Shown: one piece after another, positions 15,404 to 57,309 of the stretch
How the letters are laid out: each line of letters begins with the position of its first letter
Numbering within the stretch: position 1 is the stretch's first letter
Assembly: GCA_965226795.1 (NCBI GenBank)
Contig: CBDDDZ010000004.1
Span: forward strand, 867,854-931,853
Direction of reading: 5' to 3'
Source of the DNA: Candidatus Latescibacterota bacterium
GTDB lineage: Bacteria; Latescibacterota; UBA2968; GCA-2709665
DNA: 64,000 nucleotides
Made by a program: the position numbers and the translations under genes
The notes under the pieces: generated by a model
The model's input: only the letters and a program-made list of their open reading frames with translations
Told to the model about the DNA's origin: nothing
Database searches by the model: none

Positions 15404-16024
15404 ATGGAACAGAAAAAGACGACATACAAGCCGATTAAGGATATGAGTATTTTCCAATTTAGCAAGCGGTTTCCGAATGAAGCTGTTGCCATATCTTATG
15501 TCGAAAACCTGCGATGGAAAGATGGGATTTACTGTCCGCATTGTGGGGTTATCGGCAATGTTCAGAAAACGAAAAACGGCAAGCCGCAACCTTATCGCTG
15601 TCGAGAATGCCGCAAGCATTTTTCAGTAAGGACCGGAACGATCATGGCGCAGTCCAACCTGCGATTGACAACGTTTCTCAATGCTATCTATCTTATCATC
15701 ACACATCGCAAGGGTGTGCCGAGCACTATGCTTGCCAGGGAGTTGGGTGTTACGCAAAAGACAGCATGGCATCTGGCCCACAGAATTCGTAAAGCGTTGG
15801 AGATGAAGGGCGGTTTGTTCTCCGGACCGGTAGAGGTTGACGAAACCTATATTGGCGGCAAGGAACGGAACAAACATTCTTCCAAGAAGTTGCATGCTGG
15901 CCGTGGTACTGTTGGCAAGACTGCGGTTGTGGCAGTGCGAGATCGTGAAGATGGTAAGGTTAAAGCCAGGCTGGTACAGGGAACGGATAAAAGGAAGTGG
16001 ACCCAATCGTCAAGACCAATTTGA
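15404..16024 (+). pseudogene. IS1595-family transposase, C-terminally truncated
   Basis: Zn ribbon CPHCG...CRECRKHFSVRTGT, HTH, and VEVDETYIGG. The downstream TD/HTN.IE catalytic region is missing. Confidence 0.88.
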
Positions 16025-20231: not shown

Positions 20232-21377
20232 ATGATCGACAAAGACTGGGGCAGCGACACTCTAACAAGATTTCGCTATCAGGCAGAAGCGACGCTTCCT
20301 TACTGCCTAGCGGTTATGTCCTCCCAGAATGATATTCTCTCAGTAATTCCGGAATATCTCGAAGACATAGCCCTTAGAACGAACGATGGCTGGCGATTTC
20401 TGCAAGTAAAGACGCGAAACCCAGAACGAGGTTTGTGGACAGCGTCTGAGCTTTTCACCAAAAACGGAGGCGCTTTACGCTCCCTATATCGCACTTACCT
20501 ACTCACCATCGGGAAGGACCATCCACTTGAGCTTCTCCTTGAAGGCGCCGTAAAGCCTAGCGATCCAATATGCATGCTTTACCCTGGGAAAGACCGCTCC
20601 CAACTCGAGGACATAGTAGTTGATAAGCTAGGCCCATCCCGATCATCGGCGAAGGACTTCCTCCGACGCGTAACTCTCAACGAAAGTATGCCCCGTCGAT
20701 CAGATATGCATGCAACAAATGCCCGGTTGCTGCATGAACTCAAACCCTCCCTGACTTATACGGAGCTAGAAGCCGTACATAATTCGATTCTTTTTGAAAT
20801 CGAACAGGCAATGCGTTGTGATCGACTCAGTGCACTATGGCCACGCAGCATTGTTCATCCAAAGGCACGGTCCACAACAACTGAGGATAGACTCCGAGCC
20901 AAGACGCTCGACGCCGACCGCCTATCCGCGATAGTCGCCCCGGTCACGCGTGCGGAACGTCCCCTATTAAAGCGATTCGTGGAATCAGGTAGCCGGTCCG
21001 TTACGCCTCTGACTCAGAAGCTCGTCTTGGGTGGAGCTACCCCCGCTATTGTTGAGCTGGCACGCAATCTCCAGGCGAACGCACGCCACCAACGTTACGT
21101 ACGAGCATCTAAGAGCCTTGCAAACGAGGATGCTATCCTCTCCGACCTGCGCGAGCGACTTCTCACATATGCACTGACGGCGACCGCGTCACAAGACCCA
21201 ACAAACCGCCCTGCGGTCCGAATCTGGCAGGAATTACTTGACAAATTCGACAAACATTCGAGACAAATCGATCGAAGTAATCTGGTATGTGCGGATCCGA
21301 TGCTATTGATGGGCGAAACATGTATCCTTTCTGATGAATGCGCGTTTGGTTGGGGGGAGGCGTCCGATGCGGGTTGA
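20232..21377 (+). CDS. Lamassu/ABC-3C effector: Cap4-like (DUF4297) PD-(D/E)xK nuclease plus C-terminal domain
   Basis: GSDT..RFRYQ, EDI...FLQVKT, and C-terminal G..CILSDEC.F.W motif. Confidence 0.8.
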   Translation: MIDKDWGSDTLTRFRYQAEATLPYCLAVMSSQNDILSVIPEYLEDIALRTNDGWRFLQVKTRNPERGLWTASELFTKNGGALRSLYRTYLLTIGKDHPLELLLEGAVKPSDPICMLYPGKDRSQLEDIVVDKLGPSRSSAKDFLRRVTLNESMPRRSDMHATNARLLHELKPSLTYTELEAVHNSILFEIEQAMRCDRLSALWPRSIVHPKARSTTTEDRLRAKTLDADRLSAIVAPVTRAERPLLKRFVESGSRSVTPLTQKLVLGGATPAIVELARNLQANARHQRYVRASKSLANEDAILSDLRERLLTYALTATASQDPTNRPAVRIWQELLDKFDKHSRQIDRSNLVCADPMLLMGETCILSDECAFGWGEASDAG

Positions 21378-29897: not shown

Positions 29898-30750
29898 TTG
29901 GTGGCGCGGACGTTTCACGATTGGAGCAGACAGGAGGTCGACGCCACTGTTCGAGACTACTTCGATATGCTGGCTTCGGAACTTCGGGGCGCGCCGTACG
30001 TCAAGGCAGCCCACAACGAGACCCTCCGCGCGCTCCTGGATGATCGTACCCGCGGCGCGGTAGAGCGCAAACACCAGAACATCAGCGCAGTCCTGATCGA
30101 GTTGGGTTTCCCGTACATCAACGGATACAAGCCGCTCTCCAACATCCAACATATGTTGCGGGACGTGGTGCGCCAGCACGTTTCGTCGCTAGAGGACCTG
30201 GTCAAAGCCGATGTCGAGGCACACCAGATTCAAGTCGCCTTCGACGATCTCCTCGGTATCGGAGTCGATCCGCCTGTGCCCACTCCCGCTTCGGTACGTG
30301 AGGCACCCGTAGACTACGTCGTTCCCAACCACCATTTCCCAACAATCAACTACCTCCAGATGGAGGCGCTCAATCGATCTCTCGGGGATGCCGGAGAAGC
30401 ATTGGTCATGGAGTTTGAGCGCGCCCGGCTACTGGGCGAAGGCAAGGACCGCCTGGCCAGAAACGTCGAGCAGGTTTCCAAAACTGTGGGCGACCATGCC
30501 GGGTTTGATATTCGGTCGTACGAAGTCAGCGGACGGGATCGATTCATCGAGGTCAAGACAACACGTTACGGCAAGCTCACGCCATTCTACATCAGCGCCG
30601 GCGAGGTCCGATTTTCCGAGGCGAACGTACACGCCTACCATCTCTACCGGCTGTTCGAGTTTCGGCAGAGACCCAGGTTCTTCCTTTTACCAGAGGGATG
30701 TCGGGCGTCACGTGCAGTTGCAGGCAGCCAGCTACCGCGCACACTTCTGA
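29898..30750 (+). CDS. DUF3883 (PD-(D/E)xK) domain protein, apparent frameshift near 30692
   Basis: DWS..EV.A.V.DYF.ML N-domain and GFDIRS...RFIEVKTT. A natural-looking C-terminus (DVGRHVQLQAASYRAHF*) lies in another frame. Confidence 0.8.
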
Positions 30751-30848
30751 GAGCCCCGCCTGTATGGGCGGCGAAAGGCGCCGGACCAGTTCGCCCGTCA
30801 CGCGGCAACCCTCATTGTAGCCGACGACCGCTCCCGCCTCTAACGCTT

Positions 30849-31604
30849 ATGTCGACCGAGGAATATCCGTTTATTTCGAACATAGTTACGACTCTTCGTG
30901 AGTTTGGCGACGCGACGTCCCGCAATCTCCAGTTCTCCCATCGTCCAGACGTGTACGTCAGTTACGGTGAAGAAACGATCACCGGAACCAACCTGCTTGA
31001 GATCAGGCGCCGACATAGCGACCGCGTTCACCTTGAGACTTTTTCCAAGAAGAAGGAGGCCCATAGCGGCGCCGACTGGGAGTGGCACATCGTCGGCAAA
31101 AATTGGACCTTGAAGATGCGAGTACAGGCCAAGAGAACCCAATACAAGAAGGGTAGGCTGCGTATCAAGTACAATCAGCAGCGTAAGTTGCTCTTAACGT
31201 GCGCAAGGGCCGCCAACATGAGGCCAATGTACTGTATCTATTGCACCGAACCACAGCGCTCGTTCTGGACGCAATCGCATCCAGACCATGGTTCTGACAG
31301 ATACCAAACCGGCTGTCTGATGGCGGATGCCAATAACGTACCTGAAACAACCACTAAACTGTGTAGAATCGAACGCAAATGCTTTCCATGGCATTTCCTG
31401 CTTGAAGGCGGCGAGAGCTGGTGGGATGGTCCCACAATCGCTGACCTTAACGAAAAAGGTGATGGCAAATTAAACCGCACCGGCGTTCATGCAACCTATC
31501 GAGACGATCTCGATTCGTCTTGTTCGCGACAAGAAGGTCCTGCGAAGACTTTGGACAGCAGAACGCATCGAAAACTCGTGATCGACGTTCGTGTTCAGGA
31601 ATAG
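30849..31604 (+). CDS. PD-(D/E)xK-like protein (DUF6615-like)
   Basis: GEETIT..NLL, EA.SGADWEW, RVQAKR. Confidence 0.65.
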   Translation: MSTEEYPFISNIVTTLREFGDATSRNLQFSHRPDVYVSYGEETITGTNLLEIRRRHSDRVHLETFSKKKEAHSGADWEWHIVGKNWTLKMRVQAKRTQYKKGRLRIKYNQQRKLLLTCARAANMRPMYCIYCTEPQRSFWTQSHPDHGSDRYQTGCLMADANNVPETTTKLCRIERKCFPWHFLLEGGESWWDGPTIADLNEKGDGKLNRTGVHATYRDDLDSSCSRQEGPAKTLDSRTHRKLVIDVRVQE

Positions 31605-36814: not shown

Positions 36815-36914
36815 GTGGATTTACGAGAGCAAAACAGCGGTTAGCAAGAATCGAAGATAAGACAATCCACTCCCCCGCCCCCGAATTCCCTGCCTCCGGC
36901 GGGATGCAGAAGGA

Positions 36915-37524
36915 AAAGGGAAAACCAAATTCAACATCCACATCTCTCCAAATTCCCTGCCTCCGGCGGGTTCCTTTTGACGCGACCAAAAGGAACCAAA
37001 AGTCGCCGCTGGGCGCGGGGCCTGCCGTATGCATAGCGCGAATTTCTACACGGGATGCACATGATTATCTGCCCTGCCAGCGAAAGAGGAATTCGTGCCT
37101 TCAGAGGGGGACGGATCCGCGCGCTCTGCTCTGGCATTACTCCGGGCAGGCATCGCGTTAGACAACCGCGCGGCTACCTGAGTACGAGCAGCAATTGGGC
37201 GCCACGAGGGCTGGAAGCCCTCGGTCCGAGGAGTAGCAAGATGCAGTGGTAGCGATCAACAGATATGGTACAGTAGTCGGCGAAAGACAGTCAGGCTGCC
37301 CGGTCAGGGCGGAAGTGGCTTTTCCGCGCTATTCCGTCCGGCATCACGGGTTCAGGAACGGCTGGAAGGTACGAAGGGCACGAAAGTCTGTCTCCTCCGA
37401 TTAGGCGATTCGCGGAAAAGCAGCCCCGTGCCGAACGGCCTGCCTGCGCCGAGCCGTGCTCGGCAGGCAGGCGCCGTTCTTTTTCGTCCTTTTTCTTTGG
37501 CGAGAAAGAAAAAGGACGAAAAAA
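36915..37524. repeat. ~600-nt structured non-coding repeat, copy 1
   Basis: Colinear homology with 38915-39500. Multiple hairpins with compensatory changes. Confidence 0.85.
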
Positions 37525-37629
37525 ATAGAAAAATAAGATAATGAGACAGAAGGAAATGACCTCAGGTGCCCAGAGCACAACCCATCAATCGCCTTTCACA
37601 ATTTCCAGAATTGCCCTTCCCTGGAAATT

Positions 37630-38811
37630 TCAGTTGTCCTCCACCGACCCGTCCTCGTACCTGAGTTCCTCGCGGAGTTGCGGTTCGTAGGGGTGGGCCC
37701 GGGCTACCTCCTCGTTCAGTTCGAGTCCGAGACCGGGGGTGTCCGGCAACCTTACGAAACCGTCCTCGATCTGGTACCTGTGCCCGAAGAACAGGTCGTC
37801 CATCCAGTCCGTGGACTTCTTGAAGGGCTCGTTCGCGTAGGACCCCATCTCCTGGATGACGCTGTTGGGGCAGTTCAGGCCCATGTGGATCTCGGCGGTG
37901 AGACCGACCTTGCTGTAGGTGATGTGGGGAGAGACCTGAATGTACTGCGCCTCCGCCATGGCCGCGATCTTTTTGAACTCCGAGATGCCGCCGCAGTGGA
38001 CGATGTCCGGATTGAGGTAGCTCACCAGGCGCTTGGCGATGATGTCCTGGAAGCCCCACTTGGTGAAGTTCCGCTCGCCCATGCACAGGGGCACCGTCGT
38101 GCGGTCGCTCAGCCACTCGAGGGCGTCGTTCGATCCTTCCACCTGGATCGGTTCCTCCACCCAGAAGGGACGGTAGGGCTCGACGGCCTTGCAGTACTCC
38201 AGCGCCATGGTCGGCGTCAGCCGGCCGTGGGCGTCGATGAGGATGTCGAAGTCATCGCCCCCTTCGACCCGCATCTCCTCAATCTGCCTGGCTGCCCGTT
38301 TCAGGTCCCAGGGCATGGGCACGGTGAGAGGGTCGTCGACCCTGGTCACCGGCGGCCCCGTCTTGACGGCATTGCATCCCATGCTCCGGGCGCGCTGCAC
38401 GCCCGACTTTCCGCTGCCGCCGGCGTAGATGCGGACCTTGTCCCGCGCGGCGCCTCCGAGGAGCTTGTAGATCGGCAGGCCCGCGATCTTTCCGAGGATA
38501 TCCCACAGGGCGATATCGATGGCGCTGAGGGCGGTGCTGAAGAGCACGCCCACGTGCCAGCGGTTCCAGCGGTAGAGCCCCTGCCAAAGATACTCGATGT
38601 CCGTGGGATTCTTGCCGATGAGGTGGCCCTCCAGGTCTTTGATGCACTGGGCGATCGTGCCCACCTTGTTGTCGCTGATCGAGCCTTCGCCCAGTCCCGT
38701 GATCCCCTCGTTGGTGCTGATCTTCACGAAACAGCAGTTGCCTTCCACCAGGAAGGTGTCCACGGCGGTGATCCTGATACCTGCGTACTTCGCGCTGTCT
38801 TCATCGGCCAT
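37630..38811 (-). CDS. Mandelate racemase/galactonate dehydratase-like enolase-superfamily enzyme
   Basis: SAIDIALWDI.GK, P+YKLLGG, DAHG, EEP, GER, PD..HCGGI, PGLG. Confidence 0.93.
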   Translation of the reverse strand: MADEDSAKYAGIRITAVDTFLVEGNCCFVKISTNEGITGLGEGSISDNKVGTIAQCIKDLEGHLIGKNPTDIEYLWQGLYRWNRWHVGVLFSTALSAIDIALWDILGKIAGLPIYKLLGGAARDKVRIYAGGSGKSGVQRARSMGCNAVKTGPPVTRVDDPLTVPMPWDLKRAARQIEEMRVEGGDDFDILIDAHGRLTPTMALEYCKAVEPYRPFWVEEPIQVEGSNDALEWLSDRTTVPLCMGERNFTKWGFQDIIAKRLVSYLNPDIVHCGGISEFKKIAAMAEAQYIQVSPHITYSKVGLTAEIHMGLNCPNSVIQEMGSYANEPFKKSTDWMDDLFFGHRYQIEDGFVRLPDTPGLGLELNEEVARAHPYEPQLREELRYEDGSVEDN

Positions 38812-38914
38812 CGTCAGTGTCTCCTTTCAAAGCGCTCTTGAAAAACCTCGCAATAGAAACTGGCGTGTTTCTCACACCACCGTGCTTTATGCAGCGTGCG
38901 TCCGGTGCGAACGG

Positions 38915-39500
38915 AAAGGCGAAAACCAAATCGAACTTCCACATCTCCCCAAATTCCCTGCCTCCGGCGGGTTCCTTTTGAAGCGACCAAAAGGAACCAA
39001 AAGTCGCCGCTGGGCGCGGGGCCTGCCATATGCATAGCGCGAATTGCCACACGGGATGCACCGGATCATCAGCCCTGCCGGCCGCAGAAAATCAACGATC
39101 CTGGGTGCTGGACGGAACCGCGCGCTCTGCTCTGGTATTGCTCCGTATAGGAATCGCGTGAGACAACCATATTGCTACCTGAGTAGCGAGCAGCAATTAG
39201 CCGTCAGCAGTCAGCTAACAACAAACAGCGGGAAAACCGCAAATCCACGCGGCGGTCCATTCCGGTCAAACTTGCTGCCGTCCGGTGGCGAAGTGGGGGG
39301 TTTTTCCGCGTTGATCCGTTCAGCAAAGTCGTCTCGTGGGTGCTGAACCGTCCGTAGGGCATCGGCATTTGTATTCACCAATTAGGCGGTTTGCGGAAAA
39401 ACCGGCCCCGCGCCGAGCGGCCTGCCTGCGCCGAGCCGTGCTCGGCAGGCAGGCGCCGTTCTTTTTGGCCCTTTTTCTTGGGCGTACAAGAAAAAGGGCA
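38915..39500. repeat. ~600-nt structured non-coding repeat, copy 2
   Basis: Direct-orientation homologue of copy 1. Confidence 0.85.
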
Positions 39501-39556
39501 AGGGAATAGGGGACGTCAGAGGGTGGGGGAGATTCTTGCCTTTCCGAATAACCCAC

Positions 39557-47415: not shown

Positions 47416-49297
47416 CCTAAAATAAGCGAGTTTCGTTTGCGGCACATCGATCTGTGTTTGTGGTGAGGCGTTGGTGTCGATTTATATGGAATTGGCGTTT
47501 TGGATGGTTTTTAGGGCGGTGTTTGTCGTGGTCGCTATCGTGAATTGAGTATCCGAAGTGTCGGTCAGGCGCGTGGTGGACACACCGGTCCGTTGAGGGG
47601 TGTGGGGATGGCGCGGCGTGTGTGTGTCATCGGTCGTGCTGCATGGGTGTTATCCAAATCCGGTGCGTTCAATGATACGCCAGGTGCTGAAGAGGCGATC
47701 GAGGGTGGGTTGATAGCCGATGAGGCGCAACGTGGTGGTGTGCGCGCGTTGGATGACGTGGCAGGGAATCAAGATGATGCTGTGGATGAAGCGCCGGAAT
47801 TCCATGCGGACGTACTGCTGTCGGTCCAGGTGTCGGTGCATCATCATGGCAAACCAGGATTTGAGGTTCCAGGCCAGGGCGGCGATGACCATGTAGGCCC
47901 AGTTGCTGACCAGGTCATACAGGGGCACGCGCAAGGCGTTGACGCCGTTTTTGAGTTGCTCGATGACGTTCTCCTGATCGCAGCGTTGGTTGGCGCAGGC
48001 GACGATCTCGGCGGGGCTTACGTCCGTGCGTGTCGTGATATAGAAGAAATAACGGCATTCGTCGAACAGGACAAGGTCGCCCTTCATTTTACTGATGTTC
48101 TTGCGCAGGACCACGACGCGATACACACGTTTACAGCGCGTGGGTTGGTAGTTGAACTCGGCCACGTGTTCGTGGTTGAGGACCAGGTTGGCGTAGGCCC
48201 GTTTGCGGACGATGCGCTGTTTCTCGTGGGGCTGATTGCGCTTCCGCTTCTGGTCGGTCACGGTGTGATAACGGGGTTTGCGTTGCAGGGGCTGCCATTG
48301 TGCCTCGTCGAGGGCCTCAGCACGGGAACGCATCGTCGCGTTGGCGTCCATCCCGAAGATGAAGTCGACGCTTTTGGCCCATCGATCAAAATGTCGGGTC
48401 AAGGAAAAGTCGGTGTCGCCACGTACACAGAGGCGCTTGGCGTGGGGCTGCACCAGCGCCAAGGCCGCGTCGATCCAGGGTGCCGCACCGGTGTGGCTGG
48501 GCACATTCCCCGGTCGGTTGACCAGGAAGAGCACTTCCTTCGTGTTGGCCAGTGAGATCACCAGCGGATGGTAGCCCCAGATGCCCTGGTAAGAGATGTC
48601 CATACCCCTCTTGCGCTTTCCATACGTCGGCACGTTTGTGCCGTCCACGTCGATATAGGTGATGTCACAAAGCAATTTGCGCCCACGCGATGCCCACAAG
48701 GAGGATCGCACCGCGTTGATGCACGCCATCAGTTCGACGATGTCCCGTTCCGAGAAGCGTCGGCAAAAGTCACCCGCCGTGGTCGGATCGGGAATCAACT
48801 GAGCACCCAGGGCATTCATGTAGGCCCCGTCATGTCGCAAACGCTCGATATCCTCCAGACGCGTGCCGCCGCACAACACGTTGTAAGCGATGTTGAGCAC
48901 GTGGTCCGACTCATGATAGGGCAGATGCACCTTCAACAGGGACAGCGACGCGTCGATGCGCTTGGGCAGTCCCAGCTTGGTGACCAGGCGATGCACGGCG
49001 CCGATGCCTCCGTAACTCATCGCGTCGGTGTAGGCGCCCACCTCGTAGTGCACTTTGCCAGGACTGAACATGGGCCGGGGCTGCGCCTGCCAATGCCCCG
49101 CTCGACCGTGGCGGGCGGCCACTTTGCGTTTGCGACGAGCACGGTTCCTGCGGCTGTCATCAACCGATATTCTTTTCACCGGAAAGGTCTCCTGCGTTGG
49201 AGTGATGATTTCTAGCGCAATCCATCTATCTCCAACAACGGTAGGCCTTTCCGGTCTCTTGGACCAGAAAAATCTCACCGGTCACGCTTATTTAAGG
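47416..49297 (-). mobile_element. IS1380-family insertion sequence
   Basis: Terminal IRs CCTAAAATAAGCG / CGCTTATTTAAGG. CTAG(A) occurs on both flanks. Confidence 0.9.
47650..49179 (-). CDS. IS1380-family DDE transposase
   Basis: IDVDGT, GYHPL, RPGN, VRGD, R...EN.IEQLK. Confidence 0.92.
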   Translation of the reverse strand: MKRISVDDSRRNRARRKRKVAARHGRAGHWQAQPRPMFSPGKVHYEVGAYTDAMSYGGIGAVHRLVTKLGLPKRIDASLSLLKVHLPYHESDHVLNIAYNVLCGGTRLEDIERLRHDGAYMNALGAQLIPDPTTAGDFCRRFSERDIVELMACINAVRSSLWASRGRKLLCDITYIDVDGTNVPTYGKRKRGMDISYQGIWGYHPLVISLANTKEVLFLVNRPGNVPSHTGAAPWIDAALALVQPHAKRLCVRGDTDFSLTRHFDRWAKSVDFIFGMDANATMRSRAEALDEAQWQPLQRKPRYHTVTDQKRKRNQPHEKQRIVRKRAYANLVLNHEHVAEFNYQPTRCKRVYRVVVLRKNISKMKGDLVLFDECRYFFYITTRTDVSPAEIVACANQRCDQENVIEQLKNGVNALRVPLYDLVSNWAYMVIAALAWNLKSWFAMMMHRHLDRQQYVRMEFRRFIHSIILIPCHVIQRAHTTTLRLIGYQPTLDRLFSTWRIIERTGFG

Positions 49298-51670: not shown

Positions 51671-51979
51671 ATGATACCTAATGTCAAAGAGCGGGTCGTC
51701 GAACTGCAGCGGCTCTGCGTCCGTTACCGTGTCCTTCGGCTTGACTTATTTGGCTCGGCTGCCACGGACGACGACCGTAGGGGCGAAAGCGACCTCGACT
51801 TCCTGGTTGAATTCCAAACGTTGCCCTCCGGAGAGTATGCCGACGCCTTCTTCGGGTTGCTGGAAGCCCTCAAACGTCTCTTTGGACACCGTGTGGATCT
51901 CGTTGTCGACTCGGCCATCAAAACCCCTTTCTTCCGACAAAGCGTCGACGAGACCAGGACACCGCTCTATGCGGCTTGA
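51671..51979 (+). CDS. Minimal nucleotidyltransferase (MNT antitoxin)
   Basis: LFGSA, SDLDFLV, VDLV. Confidence 0.9.
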   Translation: MIPNVKERVVELQRLCVRYRVLRLDLFGSAATDDDRRGESDLDFLVEFQTLPSGEYADAFFGLLEALKRLFGHRVDLVVDSAIKTPFFRQSVDETRTPLYAA

Positions 51980-52376
51980 AGCACTCAAATATCTGTACGA
52001 CATCCGGAAGGCTGCGGGCTTACTGAATGAATTCGTCCGTGACAAGACGTTTGCGGACGATCAGAGCGACGCGATGCTGCGAGCGGCAGTAGAGCGTGAG
52101 TTTGAGATCATTGGCGAGGCTATGACTAAACTCGCAAGAGTTGACGAAGCCGCGATTTCCCGAATCAGCGAGTTTAAACGCATCATCGCGTTTCGCAATG
52201 TCCTGATCCACGAATACGCCGACGAAACTGTTCAACTTTGCCGTCTGAACGCCGAGATGAACGTTGAAATGCGTTTCCATTCGCGAGCTGTTGAACGCTG
52301 TAGAGAGAAGAAAGTTGATTTGACGGCCACTTTTAAGGAAAAATGTCCGTCAAAGTGCTTTGTCGGCCATAGATGA
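51969..52376 (+). pseudogene. DUF86/HepT-like HEPN toxin with C-terminus replaced
   Basis: AVER.FEIIGEA and FRNVLIHEY, then unrelated sequence where the expected final helix should be. Confidence 0.78.
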
Positions 52377-56628: not shown

Positions 56629-56889
56629 TATATCAAGTCTGAAAAAAGTGTCGACGAAACATCAGCTCACACTGAGACACGACGACACAAAGGAAAAGGC
56701 AGTGAACAGGAATCAGCAGTCAGCTTAAAACAGAAAGCAAAAAGGGGAATGCGATACGGCGTGGCGATATCAATGCCCGGATGTCTGGTTTTCGCAGGGG
56801 CGGTTCGGGAACCGCCCGTCTTTCGTGCAGCAACAGCCCAAGACATACAGCAGTCCTATCCGGTGAACCTCTCGTGCGCCCGGTCCGAT

Positions 56890-57103
56890 CGGGAGGGGGC
56901 TTTTCCGCGTAATTCCGTTCATCAACGTCGCTTGAGAAGTGCTGAAGACTTCGCAGGGCGCAAACCCTGGTCTCCGTTGCCGGAGCAGTTCGCGGAAAAG
57001 CAGCCCCGCGGCGTTTGAGCGGCCTGCCTGCGCCGAGACGTGCTCGGCAGGCAGGCGCGGTTCTTTTTGGTCCTTTTTCTTGCGCGAACAAGAAAAAGGA
57101 CGA
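56890..57103. repeat. 3' part of the structured non-coding repeat, copy 3
   Basis: Homologous to 37310-37524 and 39290-39500. Confidence 0.8.
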
Positions 57104-57309
57104 AGAGGAAAAAAATGAATGGAGCGGAAGAGCCTGTGTCCGCCCGGAACGCAGTTCCAGAATGCCGACCGATGGGACCATGATCGCTTAATTTTCGCCA
57201 TTTTCAGGTTTAGGGATACCATCGGCACCCCAAATTTGCTATTTTTTAGTCGATTTGATCCAACGTGCAACATCCAGCCCGATTGCCGGGAATCTCAGGA
57301 GGATACCAA

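Follow-up and report, generated by a model that had tools for sequence, protein, structure and literature searches.

Mosaic intergenic repeats with covarying arms and a predicted triplex-pseudoknot head in a sponge-associated Latescibacterota genome

The DNA considered here is a 64-kb stretch (the window) from the genome of a sponge-associated Candidatus Latescibacterota bacterium, the source genome; sponge metagenomes are among the sequencing runs that contain the stretch. The window has the appearance of a variable region. Its genes include those for an IS1380-type transposase (47650-49278), an IS1595 fragment (15404-16024), a Cap4-nuclease (20232-21377), a NOV_C protein (29898-31604), and a HepT-like protein (51681-52376). 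It also holds three copies of a repeat, found by profile matches at the positions and in the direct orientation that a first-pass annotation had given them.

Copy 1 has two arms. Arm A, a profile match on the minus strand (36920-37189), runs through an inner segment, a stem termed P1, a core of ~77 nt, a neck hairpin, a head, and a tail. The head (36970-37006, minus strand) is a hairpin (36970-36996) whose loop, at 36982-36986, is complementary to 37002-37006 in a predicted pseudoknot. A 4-nt linker of T residues (36998-37001, minus strand) mirrors the stem, a pattern that fits 29 of 29 A arms. The tail holds a mini-hairpin (36957-36970, minus strand) with a GNA loop, in which the N and a base at a distance of 6 nt covary through all four Watson-Crick types (48/48). 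Nested between the arms is a REP-like palindrome (37206-37228) resembling the repeats that flank the RAYT gene of this genome. Arm B, on the plus strand (37287-37528), comprises a G-rich junction, P1 (37317-37328 with 37411-37421), the core (37329-37410), a neck hairpin, an optional insert, a head, and a purine-rich tail. The insert (37439-37471) is a 33-nt palindrome that forms an independent mini-element and is also found inside other repeats. In the head (37472-37517), CGCC at 37472-37475 pairs with the loop sequence GGCG at 37499-37502, the hairpin has 13 bp, and the linker (37477-37484) is the mirror of the stem strand at 37490-37497, so that a triplex is predicted. The arm A tail recurs in a further, partial copy, assigned to repeat family D4, at 36879-36903 on the plus strand.

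Copy 2 consists of arm A (38921-39190, minus strand), whose core is 95% identical to that at the same site in a congener (G008), and arm B (39241-39510, plus strand), which at the G008 site differs in its core and has an additional ~115-nt module. Copy 3 is an arm B alone (56840-57112, plus strand) within a duplicated msrAB segment, with a REP-like palindrome on its inner side at about 56793-56817; the two segmental duplicates have identical cores and differ in the optional insert. Gene order breaks at copy 1, between 36755 and 36915, and a sodium:solute symporter gene stands beside an enolase-family gene in none of 13 congener loci, one of which is cut by a contig end. A rearrangement mediated by the element could not be traced at copy 1: the gene next to the enolase-family gene in relatives has no close ortholog in the source genome (matches of about 48 to 60%).

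How far does the family extend beyond the window? A BLAST search of the source genome with the element gave 135 hit clusters, which profile searches resolved into 87 loci rather than the three first noticed. Of these, 53 carry arm B only, 28 carry A and B, 4 carry arm A only, and one each is arranged AAB and AAAB. In one array (C3:633079-634434), three tandem A arms with a 372- to 378-nt period are followed by one B arm. Each arm is ~270 nt. The A profile matches the reverse strand of B (E values of 1e-3 to 4e-11), and a full copy therefore consists of two diverged homologous arms placed back to back and pointing outward on opposite strands; what had been read as the 5' and 3' halves of one colinear ~600-nt unit are inverted homologs around a variable filler. 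Such back-to-back B arms occur in 30 of the 34 loci that contain A, namely, the 28 AB loci and the two arrays. The filler is made of other small repeats, the head-to-head distance ranges from 289 to 724 nt, and the two-arm units span 500 to 850 nt. By crude ORF calls, all 87 loci are intergenic. Their orientation relative to neighboring genes is even (24/24/22/17), B arms point outward along the leading strand in 41 cases and the lagging strand in 35, and elements are rare around the GC-skew switch on contig C5. Apart from one segmental duplicate, no two copies in the source genome are identical.

Read outward, each arm presents the G-rich junction, one strand of P1, the core, the other strand of P1, the neck hairpin, the head, and the purine-rich tail. 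Among 143 nonredundant B arms, the strongest covariation falls on alignment pairs 62-162, 69-155, and 70-154 in P1, 171-179 and 172-178 in the neck, and 230-259 and 241-248 in the head stem. An upstream base also covaries with the head loop (pair 218-242, CG in 105 and GC in 33 of the 143 arms); in the predicted fold this pair belongs to a pseudoknot of 4 to 5 bp, and arm A has the same knot in other letters. Between the strands of the knot, the linker is an exact mirror of the pyrimidine strand of the head, over 8 nt in B, 4 nt in A, and 7 nt in G016, a genome of a sister genus. A mirror linker next to a hairpin fits the geometry of an intrastrand triplex, and a triplex is accordingly what is predicted. 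The rule, as given in PMC4666352, calls for a hairpin and a mirror third strand, in classes that include II and IV; the linker obeys it, the outward strand falling in class IV and the inward strand in class II. A descriptor for mirror plus hairpin found 109 matches, of which 107 lie inside elements and 102 have the knot; a recount gave 107 matches, versus 0, 1, and 0 in shuffled sequence and 11 for a direct-repeat control.

The pairing was also scored on an alignment of 36 B arms, one row of which (L103) is in the wrong orientation. There, 96.4% of cells pair, versus 90.4 ± 0.5% in shuffles, and 71 cells show double changes, versus 21.9; neither value was reached by any of 500 shuffles. In slid controls, pairing fell to 49 to 60%. 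P1, the knot, and the head exceed all 500 shuffles on pairing and on covariation score. Kinship among the arms inflates the covariation counts, and no more than a few evolutionary events may lie behind some of the covarying pairs. The supported stems are more than 95% Watson-Crick, with 38 G-T versus 22 A-C pairs on the outward strand, and heads diverge from consensus by 9% (B) and 4% (A). Selection on base pairing, which the first-pass annotation had inferred, is borne out by both alignments, and so are its long-range stem, which is P1, and its terminal hairpin. The inner stem that it proposed is not conserved, pairing in at most 9% of 75 copies in any register. Its nested GCCTGCCTG hairpin does exist, but as the optional insert, which about 44 of 75 B arms carry and about 31 lack. 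The pseudoknot and the mirror linker are features that it did not describe. Two further candidates were dropped. For an internal helix (columns 79-85 with 115-121), no double change was seen and roughly one B arm in three disrupts the pairing. Pairing of A with B in cis as a long rod scores no better than pairing in trans (32.3 versus 31.8, standard deviation 3.2, n = 18).

The core behaves differently from the stems that enclose it. It is 81 to 82 nt long in 126 of 136 arms, the adjacent junction segment being more variable, and gaps amount to only 0.1% (B) and 0.8% (A). Its sequence diverges from consensus by 38% (B) and 26% (A) at a mean pairwise identity of 54%, yet it retains a few near-invariant unpaired boxes. 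Cores fold no better than shuffles (mean z of -0.5 to +0.5 on both strands, as DNA and as RNA, 29 arms each). The length lock is the least explained feature of the element, and a swappable core of locked length is new here. Hypermutation was rejected as a source of core diversity, given that unswapped cores at the same site are 95 to 99% identical, and cores as CRISPR targets were rejected on a single 15-nt chance match. Two CRISPR-like arrays lie near 3.03 Mb on contig C5.

Small repeats crowd the inner side of the arms. Around 78 B arms, REP-type palindromes lie on the inner side in 36 cases and on the outer side in 6, and BoxC-like repeats do so in 13 cases and 1. Near the elements, in 2.5% of the genome, are 39 of its 74 REPs. 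The optional insert occurs 67 times in the genome, 48 of them near elements (in the window also at 39421-39453 and 57023-57055), and it is found within arm A and within BoxC-like repeats of relatives.

Site occupancy changes rapidly among relatives. The head pattern is present in 21 of 168 genomes of the phylum, at 0 to 55 copies (a backwards control gave one match), congeners alone spanning that whole range of 0 to 55, and element DNA matches 18 of 21 family genomes. Of 80 loci with arms in relatives, 28 have no two-sided synteny; among the 52 that are syntenic, the corresponding site in the source genome is empty in 32 and filled in 20. The empty sites that the first-pass annotation had suggested looking for thus exist. 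In eight pairs of filled and empty sites, inspected by eye at species-level distance, no clean target duplication was seen, and in several of them a short stretch had been replaced. The copy 2 site was surveyed in 13 congeners: one (G002) has a near-minimal empty spacer, G008 has the same A arm with the extra module and another core, G010 has different arms, G009 has A only, G001 and G014 have A-tail stubs, and the others have no arm.

Are whole elements replaced, or only parts of them? Of 16 comparisons of cores at the same site, 4 gave 95 to 99% identity and 12 gave 47 to 66%; the low values come mostly from distant relatives and 2 of the 12 are in opposite orientation, a flanking gene reaching about 95% identity only at the loci L035 and L015. 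L035 is the cleanest case of core-only replacement: in inner modules, neck, and head it agrees with its own site, but the L035 core is 66% identical to the core there and 95% identical to one at another locus of the source genome. Within the source genome, core identity is uncorrelated with inner identity (rho = 0.01) or tail identity (rho = -0.05), and half-core chimeras are present. Core-only swaps, the chimeras, and the difference in insert between copy 3 and its otherwise identical duplicate together argue that segments are copied between loci. In a sister genus (loci L160-L176, in G016 and G020), other body types carry the same neck and head, and the G016 copies look much more alike by eye, which suggests a younger expansion. 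Heads with other knot pairings and unrelated upstream bodies were also seen in contigs from a viral collection that differ in GC content (L128, L153, L158, L180, L182-L184, L186, and L187), where most of the 35 matches to the loose head pattern are chance matches and the arm A head was not found. A plasmid blastn search gave one chance match.

What enzyme might act on these arms? The first-pass annotation had offered a non-autonomous element moved by a HUH or other transposase. Mobility stands because there are empty orthologous sites, congeners differ from 0 to 55 copies, and orientation is unbiased, and the mobile form is probably ssDNA; no transposase, however, could be tied to the element. 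No recurrent nuclease or transposase was found among 916 ORFs around 179 loci, and no longer copy with an ORF between the same ends, or other autonomous partner, was found in the source genome or at 92 loci of relatives. A search for reverse transcriptase gave six matches, and three RT-like ORFs appeared among the 916 neighbors. The RAYT of the source genome (NF047646) has its own REP, a variant of which lies inside copy 1, and heads occur at 0 of 30 RAYT loci. TnpB and IS110 were not found in the source genome, and within the order, the Y1 transposase profile does not follow the heads. GIY-YIG nucleases have no Pfam match in the source genome, and at GIY-YIG loci the T-rich head occurs in 0 of 25, two of which have headless arm A fragments.

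DUF559 is a candidate by analogy only. BoxC repeats pair with DUF559 genes. In the family genomes, C-rich mirror-triplex repeats flank 10 of 25 DUF559 loci, and a T-rich head lies within 1.5 kb at 3 of 25, with the gene on its inner side, a count not clearly above chance. The source genome's copy looks N-terminally truncated, and arms are also present in genomes with no detected stand-alone DUF559. At six loci of relatives (L228, L229, L230, L239, L243, and L244), DUF559 genes are bracketed by BoxC-like triplex repeats, in tandem arrays. Spacers between paired BoxC-like repeats resemble the 3' end of a DUF559 gene, and a fragment of such a 3' end lies inside one A-B element (C3:232638-232759).

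Several known systems share part of this anatomy. BoxC, PIT, and TM-ECO repeats (PMC4666352) likewise combine a hairpin with a mirror strand, are intergenic with no relation to neighbor orientation, and vary in copy number between relatives and in their surroundings; in vivo footprinting of BoxC did not reveal a stable triplex. Their motif is 35 nt, whereas the head here tips a ~270-nt arm, adds a covarying loop pseudoknot, and is A/T-rich, the BoxC/PIT consensus being G/C-rich class II. True BoxC-like repeats occur separately nearby. REPINs and BIMEs (10.1101/2021.07.10.451892 and PMC8266576) also have two inverted conserved units with variable filler, many singlets, an extragenic location, and long persistence in one lineage; REPINs, though, measure about 100 bp and carry a GTAG-type tag, and here the unit is five times longer, the head has no tag, the two arms have diverged from each other, and heads are absent from the RAYT loci. 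Comparable mosaics are the Neisseria NIME (dRS3 plus RS; PMC1797815) and NTS/SsnA (PMC11893778) repeats, described as intergenic blocks built of short palindromes and of module families of 50 to 150 nt, the blocks differing between relatives at syntenic positions; the partner reported for NTS is a nuclease that cuts ssDNA hairpins. There is no sequence relation, and the element here has a polar block, a triplex head as predicted, and a locked core length. ROOL, GOLLD, and HEARO RNAs (PMC5737381 and Rfam 15) resemble the full A-B unit in size, pseudoknots, and covariation; the element differs in having no Rfam match, a modular and bidirectional build, an unfolded core, 87 dispersed loci, and rapid site turnover. 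In its workings the element resembles a BIME/NIME mosaic that bears a BoxC-type triplex at its tip, and it falls outside REPIN/RAYT, MITEs, and Rfam families. No published description of it was found in the literature searched, although the supplementary motif lists of PMC5737381 may bear on its novelty.

The explanation toward which we lean, with some rather than full conviction, is a non-coding mosaic DNA repeat whose arms fold in ssDNA and which spreads and is reshuffled by nicking in trans and recombinational copying. It starts from the modular anatomy, the covarying stems, the mirror linker, site turnover without target duplications in the pairs inspected, and core-only replacement. The steps would be as follows. 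(i) Arms fold transiently on ssDNA exposed during replication, transcription, or repair. (ii) A putative structure-specific nuclease encoded elsewhere cuts at or near the folded arm, for which RAYT, Ssn, and DUF559 offer precedents; TnpA-REP cleaves ssDNA hairpins (PMC8266576), as does SsnA (PMC11893778). (iii) Repair is templated by another copy, and crossover in the conserved boxes would then swap the core. (iv) New intergenic sites may be entered via the small shared repeats on the inner side, which would explain the mosaic blocks. (v) A putative protein may read the spacing of the invariant boxes and not the bases between them, in which case the 81- to 82-nt core length would be kept for that reason. 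Against nicking and copying stand the failure to find a cognate enzyme beside the 179 loci or at RAYT loci and the fact that core swaps need only ordinary recombination. A bolder proposal, which we regard as no more than tentative, is that these are a new class of selfish ssDNA element, in which an uncharacterized nuclease or recombinase recognizes the triplex pseudoknot, measures the fixed-length loop, and drives the exchange of core cassettes, with the head common to distant bacterial lineages and one enzyme family serving all.

The spread and persistence of REP-like and triplex (BoxC/PIT) repeats is a long-standing question. The family offers about 140 diverged natural variants whose compensatory changes define a testable fold, a pseudoknot with a mirror triplex, and comparison across genomes gives direct evidence of modules being copied from one locus to another instead of being inserted as a whole. 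If a protein did read a natural DNA triplex-pseudoknot, or an ssDNA enzyme did measure length, that would be new biochemistry; with no enzyme at all, this would still be a clear case of intergenic repeats remodeling the genome of a sponge symbiont.

Could the element do without a dedicated enzyme? The head might stall forks or ride as cargo of REP/RAYT and BoxC/DUF559, with host recombination homogenizing the boxes and shuffling the cores. The missing cognate gene speaks for this, as do the clustering of small repeats (39 of 74 REPs in 2.5% of the genome), the DUF559 gene on the inner side of the head at three loci, and the ability of PIT elements to block DNA polymerase in vitro (PMC4666352). 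We consider it rather doubtful, in that it leaves unexplained the compensatory changes in four separate helices, the near-invariant unpaired boxes, and the core lock in 126 of 136 arms.

Less likely again is that each arm is a structured ncRNA, about 250 nt in length, with an ENE-like U-A-U triple helix protecting its 3' end. The mild G-T excess on the outward strand (38 versus 22) and a weak internal helix rich in G-T pairs would suit RNA. Whole copies fold better than shuffles (z = -4.8 as RNA, -7.9 as DNA). Against RNA, GNA mini-hairpins are typical of DNA. Pyrimidine-motif triplexes are possible in RNA (PMC4666352). The unique core of copy 2 does appear in a metatranscriptome, on a contig at a depth of 4.7 versus 8 to 11 for adjacent genes in the same run; the RNA runs are assembled contigs only, a weak measure in which uncovered parts were not counted as evidence, and in such contigs heads accumulate in DNA-like runs as well as in RNA runs. 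The search for a promoter-like site found none, the cores fold no better than shuffles, and the element has the copy number and the turnover of sites that mark a selfish repeat. Rfam gave no match at gathering score for the window, only chance hairpin matches at E values up to 10, in line with the first-pass annotation, which did not recognize the element as a named family. Its other suggestion, a single large structured RNA, is not supported for modular elements whose arms point outward on opposite strands, with unfolded cores, nearly pure Watson-Crick stems, and no enrichment in RNA contigs. DNA is favored over RNA.

A classical MITE, in which A and B are the inverted termini of a DDE or IS200-type transposon since lost and move together as one unit, would account for arms that are inverted homologs and for the back-to-back B in 30 of 34 A-containing loci. 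It is nonetheless quite improbable: the eight pairs compared by eye at species-level distance show no clean target duplication, the ends are not sharp, 53 loci have B only, identical copies are limited to the one segmental duplicate, and the source genome yielded neither TnpB nor IS110 nor a longer version whose ends enclose an ORF. Decayed coding sequence, which cores almost without indels might suggest, was rejected as scarcely credible: there is no codon phase, among 75 B arms the best frame is open in 31, and among 29 A arms in 11 (at most 41% of copies, in keeping with the earlier statement that no credible ORF is shared), length variants differ by 1 nt, and six-frame profile translations gave no convincing match outside arms, the strongest checked outside matches being arm fragments.

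Other features of the genome touch on these repeats. The G-rich junction was considered as a Chi-like sequence, GGTGGTGG having rank 19 of 7859 with 74% on the leading strand; RecC was not found, however, and the arms have no clear strand bias, and the idea was dropped. A "C module," with 15 copies of 113 to 116 nt at 85% mean identity and an internal hairpin (for example, C2:326761-326868), chains onto the junction upstream of arm B. At least six further families of dispersed intergenic repeats have 20 to 56 copies each, with examples at C5:51004-51169, C3:338274-338440, and C5:2402772-2402826. Finally, DUF1156 methyltransferase genes contain an in-frame RAYT (Y1 transposase) domain, with a stand-alone RAYT about 10 kb away; these methyltransferase genes are at C2:163395-166976 and C2:169129-172749 (L213) in the source genome and also occur in G008, G010, and G016 (L214-L216).
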